DNA of 64,000 nucleotides from Minisyncoccota bacterium. GTDB lineage: Bacteria; Patescibacteriota; Minisyncoccia; Phycocordibacterales; CAJBRS01. Each line of letters begins with the position of its first letter. Positions within the stretch are counted from its first letter, which is position 1. The notes beneath the pieces were generated by a model. The model was not told where the DNA came from. It did not search any database and saw only the letters and a list, made by a program, of their open reading frames with translations. Location: assembly GCA_017881075.1 (NCBI GenBank), contig JADGRH010000006.1:48154-112153 (forward strand), in the 5' to 3' direction. Below are positions 7,436 through 45,052 of this stretch, in pieces. The translations under genes and the position numbers were made by a program.

Positions 7436-7580
7436 AGATGGTTAGGCTAAAAGTGGAGTTTCAAATTGACATCCAGCAAGAGCTGATGCGCAACATACAT
7501 TTTACCCCTTTTTTCTTTGAATCACCGCCTTTGATTGATATACTAATTTAGTAATAATTAACTACTTAAGAATATCACCT

Positions 7581-9896
7581 ATGGCAACCAAAAGGAATGC
7601 CCGAATTGTCGAAGTAATAATTAAAAACATTCAAAAAAGAGACGATTCGATTGTTCCTTTTGATATTCAAAGAATAATTACTGCGGTTAACAAAGCGATG
7701 ATCGCTGCAAGTGAAGGTTCTCTTAAAGAAGCGGAGTCGGTGGCAAATAAAGTATACACCGATGTCCTGCATATAACTAAAAAGTATAAAAACTTTGTTC
7801 CGACGGTTGAAGGCATACAGGATACGGTGGAAAAAGAGCTTATTTTGTCCGAATATGTCCAAACCGCCAAGACTTACATCCTCTACCGAGAAAAACGATC
7901 CAAGCTCCGGGCAAAAGGATTGCGTGTTCCTCCAAAAGTAAGAAAGTTAGCAGAAGAAAGCAAGAAATATTTTAGAAATTCTCTTGGAGAGTTTGTATAT
8001 TATCGTACTTACTCGCGTTGGATTACCGAAGAGGGTCGCCGAGAGACGTGGATCGAAACAGTAGACCGTTACATTTCATTCATGAAAGAGAATTTGGGCA
8101 ATAAACTAAAAGAATCAGAATATAAAGAGATTCGGGAAGGAATTCTCAACCAAGAAGCAATGCCCTCAATGAGACTTCTGCAGTTTGCCGGCCACGCCGC
8201 CCGAAAGACAAGTGTCTGCGCATATAATTGTTCATACATTGCTCCTGAAAAATTTCAAGATCTAGCTGAAATTATGTATATCTCTATGTGCGGTACTGGT
8301 ACTGGATGGTCTGTAGAAAGCCAGAATATTCAAAAGTTTCCACAAATTAATCTGCAGAGTGGTAAGAAGCTTCCGATCCATATAATTCCTGACAATAAAG
8401 AAGGTTGGGCAGATGCGTTGACTCTTGGAATGAATGCATGGGCTCTGGGTCAAGAGATTGATTTTGATTATTCCCTGCTTCGTCCTGCAGGCACAAGATT
8501 GGAAACTATGGGAGGTAAAGCCTCCGGTCCCGAACCTCTGCGACGACTGCTTACATTTACCCGAGAAAAGATGCTCGCTCGACAAGGCAGAAGGCTTCGC
8601 AATATTGATATTCACGACATTATCTGCATGATTGGCGATTGCGTCGTCTCGGGAGGTGTCCGCAGAAGCGCCATGATTTCCCTATCAGACTTGGATGATA
8701 ACGATATTCGTGATGCCAAAAAGGGAGCATTTTATATGAATGATCCCCAAAGAATGTTAGCCAATAACTCTGCTGTATATATTCAAAAACCATCTAACAC
8801 CGAGTTTGTTGAGGAGTGGACTGCCCTTATGAAATCGGGCTCGGGTGAACGAGGTATTTTTAACAGGGGTTCGCTTGCCAATACACTGCCAGAGAGACGA
8901 ATTAAGGTGCTGAAAGAATATGAAGGATACTTTGATCCAACCGGCCAAAATATTATTGGATCTATTGGCACAAATCCTTGCGGCGAAATTATTTTACAAT
9001 CAAAACAATTTTGTAATTTATCGGAAGTAGTAGCACGAGCAGAAGACACCGAGAAATCTCTGCTTCGAAAGATTCGTCTGGCAACAATACTTGGAACATA
9101 TCAGGCAAGTCTTACCCATTTCCCTTATTTATCAAAAGAATGGAAAGAACATTGTGAAAAGGAAGCACTGCTTGGAGTCTCAGTCACCGGCCAGTGGGAT
9201 TGTCTAGCCGTAAGAAATGCAAAAACACTTGAAAAACTGAAGAAAGAAGTAATTAAAGTCAATCAGAAATATGCCAAAAAATTGGGAATCAACCCGTCAA
9301 CCTGCGCTACGGCAGTAAAGCCTTCTGGTAACCTTTCTCAAACAGTTGACTGTTCTTCCGGTATGCACCCTCGTCACGCACCTTACTACATTCGAAGAGT
9401 CCGGATCTCGGCAACCGATGCCTTGTTTAAGATGCTGAAAGATCAAGGGGTTCCCTATCATCCCGAAGTAGGCCAATCAAAGGACAACGCCACCACTTAT
9501 GTTCTGGAATTTCCAGTGAAAGCTCCCGATGGGTCGCTCTATAAAAATGATATTTCAGCCATAGATCAGCTTGAGCATTGGAAGTTGGTAAAGATAAATT
9601 ATACAGAGCATAATCCGTCCGTCACAGTTTCTGTCGGAGAAGATGAGTGGATTGAGGTGGCTAATTGGGTATATAAGAATTGGGACATTGTTGGTGGCCT
9701 TTCTTTCCTTCCTAGAGATAATCATGTCTATCAGCTTGCACCTTATGAAACAATTAATGAAAAGAAGTATCTTGAACTTTCAGAAAGGCTTATGCATATT
9801 GATTATTCCAAGATCATCACTTACGAGAAGACTGATGAGCTTGATATAAAAAAAGAATTAGCTTGTGTCGCTGGTGTCTGTGAGATTGCCTTGTAG
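7581..9896 (+). CDS. nrdJ: ribonucleoside-triphosphate/diphosphate reductase, class II (adenosylcobalamin-dependent), with N-terminal ATP-cone
   Basis: ATP-cone (VIKNIQKRDDSIVPFD...), the NPCGEI active-site motif, and a C-terminal Cys pair; 771 aa. Confidence 0.9.
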   Translation: MATKRNARIVEVIIKNIQKRDDSIVPFDIQRIITAVNKAMIAASEGSLKEAESVANKVYTDVLHITKKYKNFVPTVEGIQDTVEKELILSEYVQTAKTYILYREKRSKLRAKGLRVPPKVRKLAEESKKYFRNSLGEFVYYRTYSRWITEEGRRETWIETVDRYISFMKENLGNKLKESEYKEIREGILNQEAMPSMRLLQFAGHAARKTSVCAYNCSYIAPEKFQDLAEIMYISMCGTGTGWSVESQNIQKFPQINLQSGKKLPIHIIPDNKEGWADALTLGMNAWALGQEIDFDYSLLRPAGTRLETMGGKASGPEPLRRLLTFTREKMLARQGRRLRNIDIHDIICMIGDCVVSGGVRRSAMISLSDLDDNDIRDAKKGAFYMNDPQRMLANNSAVYIQKPSNTEFVEEWTALMKSGSGERGIFNRGSLANTLPERRIKVLKEYEGYFDPTGQNIIGSIGTNPCGEIILQSKQFCNLSEVVARAEDTEKSLLRKIRLATILGTYQASLTHFPYLSKEWKEHCEKEALLGVSVTGQWDCLAVRNAKTLEKLKKEVIKVNQKYAKKLGINPSTCATAVKPSGNLSQTVDCSSGMHPRHAPYYIRRVRISATDALFKMLKDQGVPYHPEVGQSKDNATTYVLEFPVKAPDGSLYKNDISAIDQLEHWKLVKINYTEHNPSVTVSVGEDEWIEVANWVYKNWDIVGGLSFLPRDNHVYQLAPYETINEKKYLELSERLMHIDYSKIITYEKTDELDIKKELACVAGVCEIAL

Positions 9897-10438: not shown

Positions 10439-10981
10439 TTAAAGGGCACTGCCTGGCCGCCAGGATCTGGTGAGAAACGGTAACAAATAACGATCAAGTC
10501 CATAATATCCGGCAACCTTTCGGGCAAGAACAATACCTATGGCCAAAGTAAACAAAGTGGGATTGGTACTGACCGTTCCGGCAAGAAGATAGTTCAGATT
10601 CATAAAGAGGCCGAAGAATGCGGCAATTCCTGTCAATATTCCAAGAATAAGAGCGATACCAACAAGAAGTTCCCCATAGGCCACAGCATGGGACCAGATA
10701 TTGGTGTGAGGCAAAACTACATTCTGTAAAAAAGAAGCATACCAGCCCGAGACATCAGCATGAGCGCCTGTGGTTTTTTGCATTGCTCCTTGGACAAAGC
10801 CCGTCAGTGCGGAACCGGCATCCGGCCCTGTCCAAACAGGATTAATAACTTTTTCCCAGCCGGCCACAAGCCATTCCCAGCCGACATACAATCTAACAAT
10901 TAACCAAAACCAAGCAAGACGGGTGTCAGAAAACAAGAACTTAGATATAGACGACCTCTCTAATGAAATTTGTTGAGCCAT
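10439..10981 (-). CDS. DoxX-family membrane protein
   Basis: Four TM segments with the WLIVRLYVGWEWLVAGWEK pattern typical of DoxX/DoxD. Confidence 0.65.
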   Translation of the reverse strand: MAQQISLERSSISKFLFSDTRLAWFWLIVRLYVGWEWLVAGWEKVINPVWTGPDAGSALTGFVQGAMQKTTGAHADVSGWYASFLQNVVLPHTNIWSHAVAYGELLVGIALILGILTGIAAFFGLFMNLNYLLAGTVSTNPTLFTLAIGIVLARKVAGYYGLDRYLLPFLTRSWRPGSAL

Positions 10982-17079: not shown

Positions 17080-17236
17080 ATACAGGAATCGGTCACACAT
17101 AATTTTCTGCTGAAAATTTGCGCGACCCCGCCTCCTCGCCTTCGCTCGTCCGGCCTTGCGCTTTGGGTCCCATCCCAAAGCTCACCTCTCATTACGGCTT
17201 AGAAGTCCGCTGTTCTATCCATTGAACTACGAGGGC
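17080..17236 (-). repeat. tRNA-associated conserved module, copy B, fused to a duplicated 5' portion (positions 1-47) of a tRNA-Arg-like sequence
   Basis: 17193-17236 (minus strand) reproduces the tRNA-Arg acceptor 5' strand variant GCCCTCG, D-arm and full TCT anticodon arm. Then a roughly 110-nt insert contains the shared hairpin (17091-17135) and ends in ..GACCGATTCCT, imitating the T-loop 3' side, 17 nt before the intact tRNA-Arg. Confidence 0.55.
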
Positions 17237-26820: not shown

Positions 26821-27084
26821 TTAAGAAGCCTTCTTGATCAGTTTTGAGAGGCGGGACTTTTTGCGAGCGGCGTTATTCTTCTTGATGATTCCCCTCTTAG
26901 CGGCCTTGTCGATGGCTTTGTAGGCCCGGCTAAGAGCGACCTTGGCCTCTTTCACATTTTTCAGGCCAACCATTTTTTTGATCTCTTTAGTGACGTTATC
27001 CATCTTGCTCTTGCGACGGAGGTTGAATACTCGCTTTCGCTTTGAGGCTCGCAGGGCTTTTTTAGCATTTTTTGTGATCGGCAT
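26821..27084 (-). CDS. rpsT: 30S ribosomal protein S20
   Basis: KNAKKALRASKRKRVFNLRRKSKM... aligns to S20; 87 aa. Confidence 0.9.
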   Translation of the reverse strand: MPITKNAKKALRASKRKRVFNLRRKSKMDNVTKEIKKMVGLKNVKEAKVALSRAYKAIDKAAKRGIIKKNNAARKKSRLSKLIKKAS

Positions 27085-39942: not shown

Positions 39943-40806
39943 CTATCGTCGTACTCCGTTAACCGTCACGGTGGTGTAGTTCCCATTGGAGTTATAATTA
40001 CCGGTCGTGTTCGTGAGCACAATCCCAGGACCTGCCATCTGCCGCTGTGGCTGTGGCTGTGGCCGCGGTTGCTGTTGCGGTTGCATCCGAGGAAACTGCT
40101 GCCGAATCGGCTGGGAATGATACTGAGAAATTAACCTCGGTAACATCGCCAGAAACGGTTGGAACGGCTGAGGCGACGGCCGGTATTGAGGCCGCGGTAC
40201 TTGCTGACGCTGCACCTCACATTCTCGACAAGGCGGTGGAGGAGCAGACACGTGCCGTCTTTCCTGCTTCGGACATGGTACCTGAGTAAGATTTACCCGG
40301 TTCTTATAATCATGGCCGTCGAGAATGCAGTGGTCAATGTAGAGGGGAATCCACATCCCCTTAATCTTGAGACACCAGAACCACGCATCTTTGGCCTGGT
40401 CCAGTTCCACCCCGCCATTGTTCATGTCGTTGAGGAAGAGGTAGCCAGGAATCTCGCTTCCAGGAACGTGAGTCAAGCCTTTCAAACTTTCCGGGCCTGC
40501 ATATCGTGGCTGACGAAAAATCTCCGGGCCGACACCGCTCTCGCTCACCGTTTTGATAGTGTCGTAGCGTTTTTCCGTATGACCTGTCCGATCGTGAGGC
40601 CGATATCGGTTTCCATCGTAGGAAGTGCGCTGAGGTCGCGAGTCGGTGCGATCGTAGTGATCGCTTGATTCGGATGGTCCGTAACTTGGAAGCGACGGCG
40701 CCATTGGAAGTGTTGGGTCGTACTCGCCACCATTTTGGGCGCGCACGTTGATAGTTAAACTGACGCTGACAATTGCTGTCAGCAAGATTGCAATGAACGT
40801 TTTCAT
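39943..40806 (-). CDS. secreted Pro/Gln/Arg-rich repetitive protein
   Basis: Signal peptide. C-terminal QPRPQPQPQRQ-type low-complexity repeats from the ggctgtggctgtgg DNA repeat at about 40020-40110. Confidence 0.5.
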   Translation of the reverse strand: MKTFIAILLTAIVSVSLTINVRAQNGGEYDPTLPMAPSLPSYGPSESSDHYDRTDSRPQRTSYDGNRYRPHDRTGHTEKRYDTIKTVSESGVGPEIFRQPRYAGPESLKGLTHVPGSEIPGYLFLNDMNNGGVELDQAKDAWFWCLKIKGMWIPLYIDHCILDGHDYKNRVNLTQVPCPKQERRHVSAPPPPCRECEVQRQQVPRPQYRPSPQPFQPFLAMLPRLISQYHSQPIRQQFPRMQPQQQPRPQPQPQRQMAGPGIVLTNTTGNYNSNGNYTTVTVNGVRR

Positions 40807-40920: not shown

Positions 40921-42603
40921 ATGGTCAAATTTAACGAAGACAAACAAAAACGTCGTATAGCCGATCTCTATAAAAGTGAGGAGGAAGAGTTGGCTCAGGT
41001 TCTTTCTAAAAAGTACGACTTGGAATATGTAGACCTCACCAGTATTACCATCAATACCGATGCTCTGCGTATAGTGAAGGAAGAAGAGGCTCGAAAGAGC
41101 CATCTGGCTGTCTTTGACATTGTTAATAAAAAAATCAACGTGGCCATTCAGACCCCCAATAATCCAGACACTGTGACGACACTGGCAGACTTAAAACAAA
41201 AAGGCTACGAGTCAAGAGTTTTTATGACTTCAACTGAGAGTTTAAATAAGGCTTGGGATCGTTATAAGGATCTTTCTTTTGCTTTTGAAACTGCCGCTGG
41301 TTCGTTGGACATTTCTAATGAAGAAATCGAAACTTTTTTGGGTCAGGTACATAAATTACCGGACATTCAAAAACTGATCGTGGAAACTTTGGCCATGAAA
41401 AAGAGTTATCGCGTCTCTCGAGTGTTGGTGATTATTTTAGCCGGCGCTCTTTCTACAAAAGCTTCCGATATTCATATTGAACCGGAAGAGGACCACACCC
41501 GATTGCGTTATAGGCTGGACGGGGTGTTGCTGGATGTCCTTAATTTTGATAATGAAACTTATAATCTTCTGCTTTCTCGAATCAAACTCCTCTCTAATTT
41601 GAAATTAAATATTAAACAGAACGCCCAAGATGGACGCTTTAGTATTAAAGTTCGTGATGATGAGATTGAGGTTCGAACTTCTATTTTGCCCGGCAATTAC
41701 GGTGAGTCTATCGTGTTACGACTTTTGAATCCTAAATCCATCACCGTCCCATTAGAAGAATTGGGGGTGGAGCCGCGCCTCTTTAAAATTCTGGAAGCGG
41801 AAATCAGAAAACCAAACGGCATGATCTTAACTACAGGACCAACCGGTTCCGGCAAGACTACTACTCTCTATTCTTTTATGCGCCGTATCTATAGCCCAGA
41901 AATTAAAATCATTACCATTGAAGATCCAATTGAATACCATTTGTCCGGCATTGTTCAAACCCAAGTTGAGGCTAAAAAGGGTTATACCTTCGTGGCCGGA
42001 TTACGCAGCGCTCTTCGACAAGACCCTGATGTGATAATGGTGGGAGAAATCCGAGATGAAGAGACAGCGGAGATTGCTATTAATTCCAGTCTTACCGGAC
42101 ATTTAGTTTTTTCCACCCTTCACACCAACGACGCCGCCGGTACCTATCCGCGTTTGATAGACCTAGGAATTAACCCGCAAGTTCTTTCGTCGGCAATCAA
42201 TGTCTCTATTGCCCAACGTTTGGTGCGAGTGCTTTGTCCGGCCTGTAAAAAAGAGATTCCGGTGCCGGAAGAGAGAAAAGTGATTTTAGATAAAGTAATA
42301 GGTTCTATCTTTTTGGAAGAAAATAAAGTGGAAGTGAAAACAATTTTTGAGCCGGTGGGTTGCGAGAAATGTAATCATCAGGGGTTTAAAGGCCGTATCG
42401 GTATCTATGAAGCGATCGTTACCGACGCAGCACTCGAAGAAGTAATTAAAATGAATCCGAGCGAGCGAGAGATCCGAAAAGCCACCCGACCGCAAGGAAT
42501 CCTCACTATGGAACAAGACGGCGTACTGAAAGTACTTCGTGGTGTCACCTCCATCTCTGAACTCGAACGTGTCGTCAATTTGGAACAGTATTTGAATCTA
42601 TAA
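40921..42603 (+). CDS. pilB: type IV pilus assembly ATPase PilB / GspE-family secretion ATPase
   Basis: Walker A TTGPTGSGKTTTLYS, Asp box, His box, tetracysteine motif CPACK...CEKCN; 560 aa. Confidence 0.9.
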   Translation: MVKFNEDKQKRRIADLYKSEEEELAQVLSKKYDLEYVDLTSITINTDALRIVKEEEARKSHLAVFDIVNKKINVAIQTPNNPDTVTTLADLKQKGYESRVFMTSTESLNKAWDRYKDLSFAFETAAGSLDISNEEIETFLGQVHKLPDIQKLIVETLAMKKSYRVSRVLVIILAGALSTKASDIHIEPEEDHTRLRYRLDGVLLDVLNFDNETYNLLLSRIKLLSNLKLNIKQNAQDGRFSIKVRDDEIEVRTSILPGNYGESIVLRLLNPKSITVPLEELGVEPRLFKILEAEIRKPNGMILTTGPTGSGKTTTLYSFMRRIYSPEIKIITIEDPIEYHLSGIVQTQVEAKKGYTFVAGLRSALRQDPDVIMVGEIRDEETAEIAINSSLTGHLVFSTLHTNDAAGTYPRLIDLGINPQVLSSAINVSIAQRLVRVLCPACKKEIPVPEERKVILDKVIGSIFLEENKVEVKTIFEPVGCEKCNHQGFKGRIGIYEAIVTDAALEEVIKMNPSEREIRKATRPQGILTMEQDGVLKVLRGVTSISELERVVNLEQYLNL

Positions 42604-42740
42604 CCTGGAGTAGCCGCGCCACTACACAAAAACCATGCAATACCCAATGGTCCAGGCTGTTCCCGGAGAGCTCGTGAACGACACTTCTGGAGTCTGCGGA
42701 AGAATGTCGGGCAGGAGCGATACGGGCCACACCAGACTAT

Positions 42741-42768
42741 TTGAAAAATATTGAAGTCAGACTTCAAT
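42741..42768. repeat. 13-bp perfect inverted repeat AAATATTGAAGTC-A-GACTTCAATATTT
   Basis: About 140 nt downstream of pilB, in a 575-bp stretch with poor coding potential. Confidence 0.4.
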
Positions 42769-43090
42769 ATTTTCCACCACAAAAATGGGGATATGTTAAG
42801 TTGCGCGATTAAAGAGAGAGGTTTAGCATGCAAAATAGATACAAAAAAGACCTCGACAGCATAAATCTCTCAGCAATGCTTTCAATGTTTATGATTAAAA
42901 GATAAGCGCCTCTTGTAAGGATAACGCCAGCTAGCTTCCCGAAGGTAGCACCAGAGTGTCCTATGAGAAGCACCAGTAAGCCCGTTAAGGGCCTAATTGC
43001 TGAGAGATTTATATTGTCGAAGTTTCTTTCCCACATACTAGCATATATAAACCTTTTTGTCAAATCGTTGAGAATTGCCACTTTTAGCAT

Positions 43091-43113
43091 AAATAAAGAA
43101 GCCCCGCGCAAGT
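43091..43113 (-). terminator. GC hairpin GCCCCG-cgcaagtgcga-CGGGGC followed on the minus strand by a T-rich tract
   Basis: Immediately downstream (minus strand) of the GC-rich gene at 43179-43796. Confidence 0.4.
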
Positions 43114-43178
43114 GCGACGGGGCTGGAAGTTGAACGCTATTCTCCCGAGCGTGTATATATTTTGCCGAGGACTAAGTC

Positions 43179-43796
43179 CTAAGCGTTGACTTGCGAGACG
43201 ACAAACGCGAACCCGTGCTCACGAAACCACCCGCTGCCGGGGTGGCCGCCGTACGCGTGCAGCCAGCGACCATCGACGCCGCGGCTCGCGCCGAGGAGGC
43301 CCGGAGAGCCGTCGGAATCCTCGATCGGCTCATGCATGGCGACAATCCAGATGAGGCCCATGGCTTCAATCTCATCGTCCGAGAAGTTGTCGCGGATGAG
43401 GCAACCCACTTCGGCGTTCGGCTTGCCCAGGTTGCGGCGGTCAGCTTCGGCCCGGATCTTCTTGGTAACGCGGTCGCTATCCGAGAAGAGCATGCCCTTC
43501 AGGATGGCGATCCGGTAGGTAACGCCTTTCGTCGGCTTGAAGTCGTCCGAGAGAAGAAAGCTCTTGGCGTATTTGGTCAGGCGAATGCCCTTCTTCTCAA
43601 AGTGAGCGACCCATTCCGCACCGGTTTTGCCGTCGGAAGTGACCGTGATGTAGATGACGCCGTCCTTTTCTTCGAAGCGGCGATCCGGTTCGGCGATTGT
43701 AATTTCGCCGCGGAGAAGTCGGTCCACACCATCTTCACCGCCAAGTATGTTCCAGACCGCTTCAATGCGGCCCAGTGTATTTGGGTACTTACTCAT
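43179..43796 (-). CDS. hypothetical protein encoded by a ~60% GC segment (compositionally foreign)
   Basis: 205 aa with balanced amino-acid composition. The overlapping plus-strand 219-aa ORF is Ala/Arg-rich and looks like an antisense artefact. GC content about 20 points above surrounding DNA. Confidence 0.55.
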   Translation of the reverse strand: MSKYPNTLGRIEAVWNILGGEDGVDRLLRGEITIAEPDRRFEEKDGVIYITVTSDGKTGAEWVAHFEKKGIRLTKYAKSFLLSDDFKPTKGVTYRIAILKGMLFSDSDRVTKKIRAEADRRNLGKPNAEVGCLIRDNFSDDEIEAMGLIWIVAMHEPIEDSDGSPGLLGASRGVDGRWLHAYGGHPGSGWFREHGFAFVVSQVNA

Positions 43797-44020
43797 GATT
43801 TTTTGTCTATCCTTTCAACTTTTAGTTGGAGTTTTATGCCTTTCTACTAGAAAGGACATACTAGACCGTGCGGTCGTAGCCAGGAAGCGCCCAATAGCTT
43901 CAGCACCTTCTGGCTACGACCGATTTCGCGAGTCATTTCAAGGAACCCAATTTGGCTGTATTATACCATATCTAATTTAAAAATGCAAGCTCGTTATTTT
44001 ATGATATTATTTTTGTAACT

Positions 44021-45052
44021 ATGAATGCTGAGGATAAAAAGGTAGATGAAACGGAGAAAGTTTATGTGGAGGATCAGGTCCTCGACCAGACCTTGCGGCC
44101 GACCCGGTGGGATGATTATGTCGGACAAGATCCGATAAAACAAAATCTTAATATTCTTCTTTCTGCCGCCAAGGAGAGGAAACACCCACCGGAACATGTT
44201 CTTTTTTACGGACCACCAGGACTTGGTAAAACAACATTGGCACACTTAATTGCTAAAGAGATCAGCGCACCTATTAAAATCACTTCCGGTCCTGCTATTG
44301 AACGAGTTGGCGATCTTGCTTCCATTCTGACCAATCTTTCAGCTGGTGATATTTTATTTATTGATGAGATCCATCGCTTGAACAAAACAATTGAGGAAGT
44401 ACTATACCCCGCCATGGAATCAGGGGTGTTAGATATTATTATTGGCAAGGGGCCATCGGCGCGTACCATTCAACTTGATCTCCCCAGCTTCACTCTGATT
44501 GCCGCCACTACTCGTATTGCTCTTCTCTCTTCTCCACTTCGATCACGTTTTTCCGGTGGAGTTTTTCGTTTGGAGTTCTATAGTCAGAAAGAAATTGAAG
44601 AAATCGTTCGTCGTTCAGCCAAGATCTTAAAAATTGAGATTGAGGAAGAAGCGATTAAAGAAATTGCCAAACGGAGCCGTTTTACTCCGCGGACCGCCAA
44701 CTATCTACTGAAACGATGTCGTGATTATGCACAAATTAAGAGGGTCCCACTTTCTAAAGAAATGGTAGTGGAGGCATTGAAACTCCTTGGTATTGATGAA
44801 GTGGGGCTCTCGCTTTCGGACAAAAATCTTTTGGAGACAATAATTAATAAATTCAATGGTGGGCCGGTTGGCCTAAACACTTTGTCTGCCTCAATGTCGG
44901 AAGAAGAAACCACTATTGAAGAGTTCAACGAACCTTATCTGATTCAGATAGGTTTTTTGGAGAGGACACCGCGCGGCCGTACCGCCACAGCGCGCGGATA
45001 TGGGCATTTGAAAATAAAAATGCCAGAACATTTACAAAATAAATTACTTTAA
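44021..45052 (+). CDS. ruvB: Holliday junction branch-migration ATPase RuvB
   Basis: AAA+ Walker A GPPGLGKTTLAHLIAKE, Walker B ILFIDEIHRL, sensor and winged-helix C-terminus. Confidence 0.95.
   Translation: MNAEDKKVDETEKVYVEDQVLDQTLRPTRWDDYVGQDPIKQNLNILLSAAKERKHPPEHVLFYGPPGLGKTTLAHLIAKEISAPIKITSGPAIERVGDLASILTNLSAGDILFIDEIHRLNKTIEEVLYPAMESGVLDIIIGKGPSARTIQLDLPSFTLIAATTRIALLSSPLRSRFSGGVFRLEFYSQKEIEEIVRRSAKILKIEIEEEAIKEIAKRSRFTPRTANYLLKRCRDYAQIKRVPLSKEMVVEALKLLGIDEVGLSLSDKNLLETIINKFNGGPVGLNTLSASMSEEETTIEEFNEPYLIQIGFLERTPRGRTATARGYGHLKIKMPEHLQNKLL

Follow-up and report, generated by a model that had tools for sequence, protein, structure and literature searches.

The closest described counterparts of the gene treated here are variable proteins (VPs) of diversity-generating retroelements (DGRs) with a C-type-lectin fold, namely Mtd of Bordetella phage BPP-1 (PDB 1yu0) and TvpA of Treponema denticola (PDB 2y3c), to which the archaeal minimal lectin fold of the AvpA type, cited by Wu et al. 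2018 (PMC5758913), can be added. That paper comprises a ‘CPR set’ (CPR, candidate phyla radiation) of 126 DGRs, sorts their variable regions (VRs) into classes UVR1-6 plus an ungrouped remainder, and cites a further study as ref. 23. It thus already covers DGRs of CPR bacteria, among them some whose targets have VRs of unassignable class: CPR and DPANN elements have a single adjacent target without recognisable motif and a VR class of unassigned fold. The Treponema DGR, by comparison, serves seven remote targets (PMC5758913). Here, we analysed a stretch of 64,000 nucleotides from a Minisyncoccota bacterium (contig JADGRH010000006.1, positions 48,154 to 112,153 of the forward strand; hereafter “the window”, with positions counted from its first nucleotide), which belongs to the same host group and in which one minus-strand gene forms a GC-rich block within low-GC DNA. 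Very probably, this gene encodes a solo DGR variable protein, i.e. a DGR target without a retroelement of its own in the window, and its GC-richness is intrinsic. The coordinates of the features are compiled in Table 1.

The original prediction, which was made from the sequence alone, could not place the protein in any family. Indeed, scans of Pfam, PHROGs, NCBIfam and PADLOC returned no match for the VP, and Pfam domains such as FGE-sulfatase or DUF1566 were not found in it. Homologues are nevertheless plentiful: 670 unnamed proteins share 60–70% identity, all of them, among the matches listed, from metagenome-assembled genomes (MAGs) of Patescibacteria, with hosts including Vogel-, Taylor-, Uhr-, Wolfe- and Nomurabacteria as well as Paceibacterota. 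No homologue outside Patescibacteria-type MAGs appeared among these matches. The best match among GTDB species representatives is 68% identical, and 2,530 of 1.84 billion cluster representatives match the family profile at E <= 0.001. On sequence grounds, the family is thus large, restricted to Patescibacteria and absent from Pfam. Its identity was disclosed by the homologue search together with the alignment and the cassettes that accompany many relatives: over nearly its full length, the window protein is 56–70% identical to the DGR targets of loci L002, L012, L078 and others.

The alignment of the family shows strong conservation of residues ~36–160, with a mean entropy of 0.89 bits in this core, followed by a C-terminal part of different character, which is homologous to the template repeats (TRs) of the related cassettes. 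Within this VR, residues 166, 169, 171, 173, 180, 182, 185, 188, 191 and 194 are hypervariable, each position accommodating 11–15 residue types at an entropy of 2.9–3.4 bits. Interleaved with them are the invariant residues L167, L168, W178, L179, P186, W190 and G195-F196-A197. The hypervariable codons coincide with TR columns in which adenine reaches a frequency of at least 0.4. A nucleotide profile built from the stop-to-RT region (RT, reverse transcriptase) of 33 cassettes and applied with nhmmer matches window positions 43188–43318, i.e. the VR, at E = 4e-21, and the window VR departs from the consensus TR at ~21 positions that are TR adenines, which argues that this VR has been diversified at some time. 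With full-length homology to DGR targets and a 3’-located VR whose hypervariable codons are linked to adenines, the window gene is, by these sequence characters, the variable (target) protein of a Patescibacteria DGR family.

The predicted fold of the VP resembles a C-type lectin and in this respect is reminiscent of Mtd and TvpA. A Foldseek comparison of the model with the PDB was not significant, however, and a profile search of PDB sequences with the VP family yielded nothing meaningful. With ~205 residues and an N-terminal extension of only ~35 residues, the window protein is also much smaller than Mtd and TvpA, and no solved structure resembles it detectably in sequence. It lacks a signal peptide and looks cytoplasmic. 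By analogy with the known VPs, it may act in ligand binding.

To see how the locus compares with intact relatives, we surveyed 82 related loci, 80 from GTDB species representatives and two from metagenome assemblies. A TR of ~127 nt is present in 44 of them, and these cassettes are of the kind reported for CPR DGRs (PMC5758913). In 35 of the 44 an RT gene is found as well, while nine have the TR only, some of these lying at contig ends. In a further 23 loci both elements are missing, although 3 kb or more of downstream sequence is available; eight loci are too short for a verdict, and the last seven are odd in that they carry truncated TRs or RT fragments. The 42 non-redundant TR-VR pairs differ at 692 positions in total, 664 of which (96%) are TR adenines. 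In L002, for example, the VR (8480–8606) recurs as TR (8943–9069) 319 nt downstream of the gene, and all 15 mismatches are at TR adenines; the RT located 3’ of this TR carries the motif LGNLTSQ. The cassette RT matches RVT_1 at E = 7e-26. Spacing within the cassettes is constant, with ~335 nt between VP stop codon and TR and ~421 nt between TR and RT, and in the cassettes examined (L078 and L002) TR and RT flank a bAvd gene (PF22296, E = 3.5e-10) that runs antisense to them. In such intact relatives, the cassette RT and Avd would jointly turn an RNA containing the TR into cDNA, with unfaithful copying of template adenines, and this cDNA would replace the VR, i.e. the last ~43 codons. The outcome would be a fixed lectin scaffold on which some 10–15 ligand-contacting residues are randomised.

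Several further features of the cassettes were noted. Between the VP terminator and the TR lies a conserved non-coding RNA of ~220 nt with its own -10 box (L078 10620–10900, with equivalents in 42 loci). The cassette RNA upstream of the TR is structured, compensatory changes being seen in 46 of 82 predicted pairs. A stretch of the L078 cassette RNA (10733–10784) gives a weak and partial match to the RT-7 RNA motif (RF03028; 22.5 bits, E = 0.015), far below the gathering threshold of 116.8 bits; an RT-7-like element is absent from the window, and the motif is unrelated to the leader and to the candidate small RNA described below. The bAvd gene of L002 (9090–9340, minus strand) is split into pieces of 45 and 36 residues, while TR and RT of this locus look intact. 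In L005 the cassette has decayed: its TR (7513–7594) is truncated after ~82 nt, the remaining mismatches are all at adenines and an RT is missing. This decayed cassette adjoins a serine recombinase, an N6/N4 methyltransferase and a CBASS pair (CD-NTase and Cap15), surroundings that look like a mobile or defence-island context.

In contrast to the DGRs of Mtd and TvpA, the window copy comes without a TR, avd or RT of its own within the 64 kb. A blastn search (word size 7) of the window with the VR as query retrieved no second copy and hence no TR/VR pair, and tblastn with a cassette RT found nothing better than E = 3.6 in the window. The stop-to-RT profile likewise detected no counterpart of the cassette RNA, TR, avd or RT in the window; beyond the VR, it gave a weak match over a stretch reaching the VP terminator. 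Pfam found neither Avd nor any other domain in the sole ORF scanned in the downstream spacer (42809–43111). Since the VR, RT and profile searches find no TR, avd or RT in the 64 kb, the window gene is a solo VP: a DGR target gene, not a DGR. The copy retains promoter, structured 5’ leader, VR and terminator. It would thus represent a complete stand-alone transcription unit whose VR bears the marks of adenine mutagenesis and whose TR-avd-RT module has been lost or was never present.

Among the relatives, solo copies are scattered between TR-linked ones. None of them has another solo copy as nearest neighbour, and in 14 of 21 cases the nearest relative is TR-linked, which argues for repeated separation of VP and cassette. 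The frequency of solo copies appears to be a modestly new observation; neither it nor the GC and codon bias of the target nor the leader was found in the available parts of Wu et al. 2018 (PMC5758913).

A VP without adjacent cassette could still be under the action of a DGR encoded outside the 64 kb, elsewhere in the genome, which would keep rewriting the window VR in trans. We regard such an active remote target as a possible, though tentative, alternative. Remote DGR targets, too, sit away from any TR or RT, and non-adjacent targets of this kind are known in other DGRs (PMC5758913). The ORF, the VR, the motif following the VR and the terminator of the window copy are all intact, the VR contains non-template residues at TR-adenine positions, and at least one MAG possesses both a cassette (L020) and a solo copy (L013). 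That MAG also provides evidence to the contrary. What defines a remote target is that its VR departs from a TR of the same genome at adenines only, and this is not what is seen here: the solo VR of L013 deviates from the resident L020 TR at 13 of 121 non-adenine positions. As the divergence of the two paralogues over the rest of the genes is 11.7% and equals this level of VR mismatch, the L013 solo copy is not being rewritten. For the window copy itself, two assemblies cross the VR unbroken, which is weak evidence against ongoing rewriting. Scans of JGI metagenomes with two IUPAC patterns carrying N at TR-adenine positions gave 0 cognate TR or VR matches in a collection that probably does not include the source sample. 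We lean towards a binding site that is currently frozen in the window VP. Two points weigh against the account of the window gene as a solo VP: action of a DGR on this particular copy is deduced from homology and the pattern seen in its VR, and the search reached 64 kb of a contig of ~205 kb, itself part of a larger genome, so that a DGR acting in trans may reside elsewhere in the genome.

The feature that originally drew attention to the gene is its base composition. The prediction of a sharply bounded GC-rich block holds, and the block corresponds to one discrete gene: the coding sequence has a GC content of 0.594 as compared to 0.413 for the whole window, with values of 0.61, 0.43 and 0.74 at first, second and third codon positions (GC1, GC2 and GC3), respectively. 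In 200-nt steps, GC jumps from 0.43 to 0.64 near position 43150 and is back at 0.41–0.47 by ~43800, which places both steps within ~100 nt of the stop and start codons of the VP. The comparison of codon usage that had been suggested bears out the contrast: GC3 averages 0.395 (standard deviation 0.068) in the 62 other long ORFs of the window, leaving the VP gene ~5 standard deviations away. For the share of C among two-fold, pyrimidine-ending codons, it ranks second among 76 ORFs with 0.69 (mean 0.315, standard deviation 0.114).

Such a compositional step, taken alone, could mean that a higher-GC fragment was joined into a low-GC contig during assembly, a concern also raised in the original prediction. 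However, run SRR10489828 has been assembled separately in Logan (L001), and this assembly agrees with the window at 100% identity in all stretches compared, which comprised positions 42713–43178 and 43797–44020 plus the products of VP, ruvB, yebC and ruvC and included both GC boundaries. A chimeric join at this locus is therefore unlikely. The two junctions moreover lie at a promoter and a terminator whose conservation extends, together with that of the gene, to at least 70 other genomes, and the same GC step recurs in all 82 related loci, leaving the chimera with next to no probability.

The step is also what had been taken as a strong signature of horizontal transfer. In its broad sense this view survives, since a DGR target gene belongs to a mobile element; the part that invoked a high-GC donor does not. 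Recent acquisition from such a donor, with a composition not yet ameliorated, would account for the sharp contrast (0.59 vs 0.41). It would also agree with the varying context of the gene among relatives, the arrangement pilB-VP-ruvB being found in no other locus, and with the recombinases or defence genes that adjoin some copies (L005). Horizontal movement of DGRs is documented, with atypical GC content used as evidence (PMC5758913). Yet, in line with the prediction’s own proviso that homologues of similar GC in related low-GC genomes would speak for a native gene, the VP gene is richer in GC than its flanks in 82 of 82 loci spread over many Patescibacteria lineages, with means of 0.557 and 0.420, i.e. 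an excess of +0.137. Across these loci, host GC ranges from 0.28 to 0.55 and the GC of the VP gene tracks it (r = 0.56). Parts of the same cassettes differ: in the 35 complete ones, GC amounts to 0.534 in the non-VR part of the VP gene, 0.608 in the VR and 0.543 in the TR, but only to 0.375 in the RT gene, with 0.420 in the DNA outside. The family profile is a plateau that runs level over the coding sequence with a maximum in the VR core and has its edges at the start and stop codons, irrespective of whether copies are solo or TR-linked. Leader, terminator and spacers are near host-like in GC, although they are inherited together with the VP. An excess in every locus, a GC-poor RT region and a plateau that ends exactly at the limits of the coding sequence exclude the high-GC donor for all practical purposes, and the absence of homologues beyond Patescibacteria-type MAGs among the matches listed points in the same direction; we consider this scenario highly improbable. 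For the same reasons a regional mutational cause is unlikely.

What sets the gene apart is instead visible in its codons and residues. At four-fold degenerate sites, C accounts for 0.43 in the family and 0.55 in the window gene, and A for 0.105 and 0.04, respectively, whereas the RT genes show an even usage with 0.22 C and 0.25 A. The share of C-ending codons for Phe, Tyr, Asn, Asp and His is 0.65–0.74 in VP genes as opposed to 0.26–0.31 in RT genes; over all six amino acids with two-fold, pyrimidine-ending codons it is 65–77% in VP genes, and Cys, for which there are few codons, reaches 48% in RT genes. In addition, the protein has an excess of Gly, Asp, Arg and Trp and a deficit of Leu, Lys, Ile and Gln, which adds ~0.1 to both GC1 and GC2. 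The best explanation for the GC excess is therefore an intrinsic codon and amino-acid bias of this class of genes rather than import. Three sources would contribute to it: the Gly/Asp/Arg/Trp-rich protein, the preference for C-ending codons and, within the VR, the replacement of adenines by any base, which adds to GC there.

Two alternative origins of the bias were considered. Adenine mutagenesis by the DGR bleeding over the whole gene cannot be the main cause, as the shift from T to C in pyrimidine-ending codons equals the loss of A and the family GC profile is flat across the coding sequence, with no gradient towards the VR. GC-biased conversion, or any other regional mutational process, is disfavoured by a plateau that follows the boundaries of the coding sequence. 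The preference for C-ending codons probably reflects translational selection on a highly expressed gene. In the window, the highest C-ending fraction (0.75, with a GC3 of 0.61) belongs to the gene of ribosomal protein S20 (26821–27084, minus strand), and the ribosomal protein L19 gene (12530–13009, minus strand) has 0.48, which points to C-ending codons as a hallmark of high expression in this genome. Against translational selection it has to be said that the comparison comprises two ribosomal genes, of which S20 only shows the bias clearly, and that GC3 of the VP gene (0.74) exceeds that of S20 (0.61), so that the C-ending or GC bias may have another cause.

A different way to constrain composition would be a second gene on the opposite strand. 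An antisense ORF of 219 codons (43191–43850, plus strand) is indeed longer than the VP ORF and codon-aligned with the VP frame, which could make it the real gene or one of two overlapping genes. This proposal was rejected and is hardly credible: the frame is stop-free in 38 of 80 homologues and closed in the other 42, with up to nine stops in members of lower GC. Protein conservation, hypervariable codons and homology to the TR all follow the minus-strand frame. That the antisense frame is open at all results from avoidance of the sense codons TTA, CTA and TCA.

Table 1. Features of the VP locus in the window and, for comparison, the bAvd gene of a related cassette
Feature	Position	Strand	Remarks
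VP coding sequence (DGR variable protein)	43179..43796	-	205 aa; GC 0.594
Variable region (VR)	43191..43318	-	codons 160-202; homologous to template repeats of related cassettes
VP promoter	43960..43988	-	-35 TTGCAT 43983-43988, 17-nt spacer, -10 TATAAT 43960-43965; read from sequence
5’ leader	43797..43955	-	~155 nt, three hairpins, first at 43871-43922
Short palindrome GGACTTAGTCC	43169..43179	-	at VP stop codon; contains family-conserved CTTAGTCC
VP intrinsic terminator	43090..43124	-	hairpin 43100-43124, U-run 43090-43099
Candidate ~200-nt small RNA	42835..43063	-	own promoter; outside the DGR family unit
bAvd (related locus L078)	L078 11044-11391	-	PF22296

The putative VP promoter is of the sigma-70 type, and its counterpart in the family alignment is a conserved TTGACA ... 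TAtaaT. The -35 hexamer of the window copy agrees with the consensus at three of six positions, and a promoter scan did not list this promoter. The leader that follows is predicted to be highly structured (minimum free energy (MFE) -60 kcal/mol, z = -5.9), and in the fold of the window sequence a conserved UUCCUU element at its 5’ end pairs with the Shine-Dalgarno sequence AAGGA (43807–43814). RNAalifold analysis of 77 leader sequences revealed compensatory changes in 12 of 13 predicted pairs; in the first hairpin, one pair occurs as GC, UA, CG and UG. The covariance model R1, whose seed includes the window sequence, matches once in the window, at 43832–43923 with 61 bits. Rfam contains no match to the leader, and permissive thresholds applied to 42500–44100 gave chance-level matches only.

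At the other end of the unit, a GC-rich hairpin terminator exists as had been predicted, albeit at the position listed in Table 1 and not at 43091–43113. Its stem covaries in 72 relatives, with CG, UA and UG alternating at several pairs. The CTTAGTCC motif sits between VR and terminator, as seen in a 3’-flank alignment of 42 TR-linked and 24 solo copies and in folds of single sequences. By analogy with other DGRs, we infer that GGACTTAGTCC and CTTAGTCC may have a role in the recognition of the target for retrohoming. Homology between VR and TR ends at a conserved ...GGGTTCGCGTTYGYCGTNTCGCAA, which is present in the window. Many relatives possess a downstream hairpin of the form GACTAAG..GGGAC-TTCA-GTCCC..CTTAGTC; the window has only a shorter one, GGAC-TTA-GTCC, and a short version also occurs in some complete cassettes such as that of L078.

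The R1 leader is not confined to VP genes of this family. It precedes genes of different sequence in L005 (leader 553–644, gene 661–1275), L016 (3792–3883, 3904–4638), L065 (3899–4017, 4049–4612) and L081 (8294–8384, 8401–9024). These genes, too, are GC-rich (0.52–0.61 against 0.40–0.46 for the respective loci), share the bias towards C-ending codons and encode C-termini that are rich in Trp, Gly and Cys and look VR-like. The shared leader may therefore mark a wider class of co-regulated binding proteins. A more far-reaching proposal combines two elements: the leader would be a new cis-regulatory RNA of very highly expressed small binders of Patescibacteria with GC and C-ending codon bias (the VP and at least three unrelated-looking proteins), and solo copies would be fixed specificities rather than relics, retained once the diversifying module had gone; episymbiotic bacteria would thus have resorted again and again to a stepwise strategy of diversify-then-freeze. 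As a whole, we rate this proposal as speculative and unlikely.

These findings have implications beyond the single locus. A compositional anomaly is explained without recourse to foreign DNA, which illustrates that a bias in codons and amino acids peculiar to one family can look like a transfer signal, and GC-based island calling in low-GC genomes of Patescibacteria will misfire on genes of the VP family. A large unannotated family of 2,530 representative clusters gains a putative role as lectin-like binders diversified by DGRs. In roughly a quarter to a third of the species representatives the target comes without diversifying machinery, a proportion that bears on how frequently DGR specificities become fixed. 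Finally, the leader RNA and the candidate small RNA provide testable new non-coding elements.

The 575 bp of poorly coding, palindrome-containing DNA (42604–43178) noted in the original prediction are non-coding by every test run and contain a 34-nt inverted repeat (42844–42877/42996–43029) and a 17-nt palindrome; contrary to that prediction, they lie downstream and not upstream of the VP gene, which is encoded on the minus strand. A 100-aa ORF within this spacer has no Pfam match. The region harbors a candidate small RNA, which occupies the place that the DGR RNA, TR, avd and RT take in relatives. Its predicted strong promoter, TTGACA-17-(TG)TAGTAT at 43063–43035, agrees with the consensus at 10 of 12 positions, and its fold comprises a closing stem of ~40 bp, a three-way junction and a terminal U-run (MFE -83.6 kcal/mol, z = -7.8). 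Rfam yielded no match, and further copies were found neither in the window nor in 87 loci. The candidate was considered as a remnant of the cassette RNA, which was dismissed since it has no sequence similarity to the non-coding regions of the cassettes and the structures look different. Likewise, the inverted repeat was considered as a miniature inverted-repeat transposable element, which was rejected because no other copy is present in the window or the loci.

On the far side of the spacer, the 3’ region of the pilB/GspE-type ATPase gene (42604–42790, plus strand) contains a long, irregular GC-rich hairpin and, at 42742–42776, the 17-nt palindrome, which forms a perfect AT-rich hairpin of 13 bp (z = -3.9 for the region including both). 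The structured part spans 42647–42776, with the AT-rich hairpin at its end. Together, these structures probably constitute the terminator region of pilB. Elsewhere in the window, a second GC-rich gene (39943–40806, minus strand; GC 0.54) encodes a Pro/Gln/Arg-rich protein of 287 residues with an N-terminal hydrophobic segment and without a Pfam match. Its GC excess looks driven by amino-acid composition, as its four-fold degenerate sites are G-rich and a preference for C-ending codons is absent. A tRNA match in Rfam at 17137–17236 (minus strand) scores 29.3 bits, just at the gathering score, spans 100 nt and adjoins tRNA-Arg(TCT); ARAGORN did not call it, and it may represent an intron-containing or degenerate tRNA.

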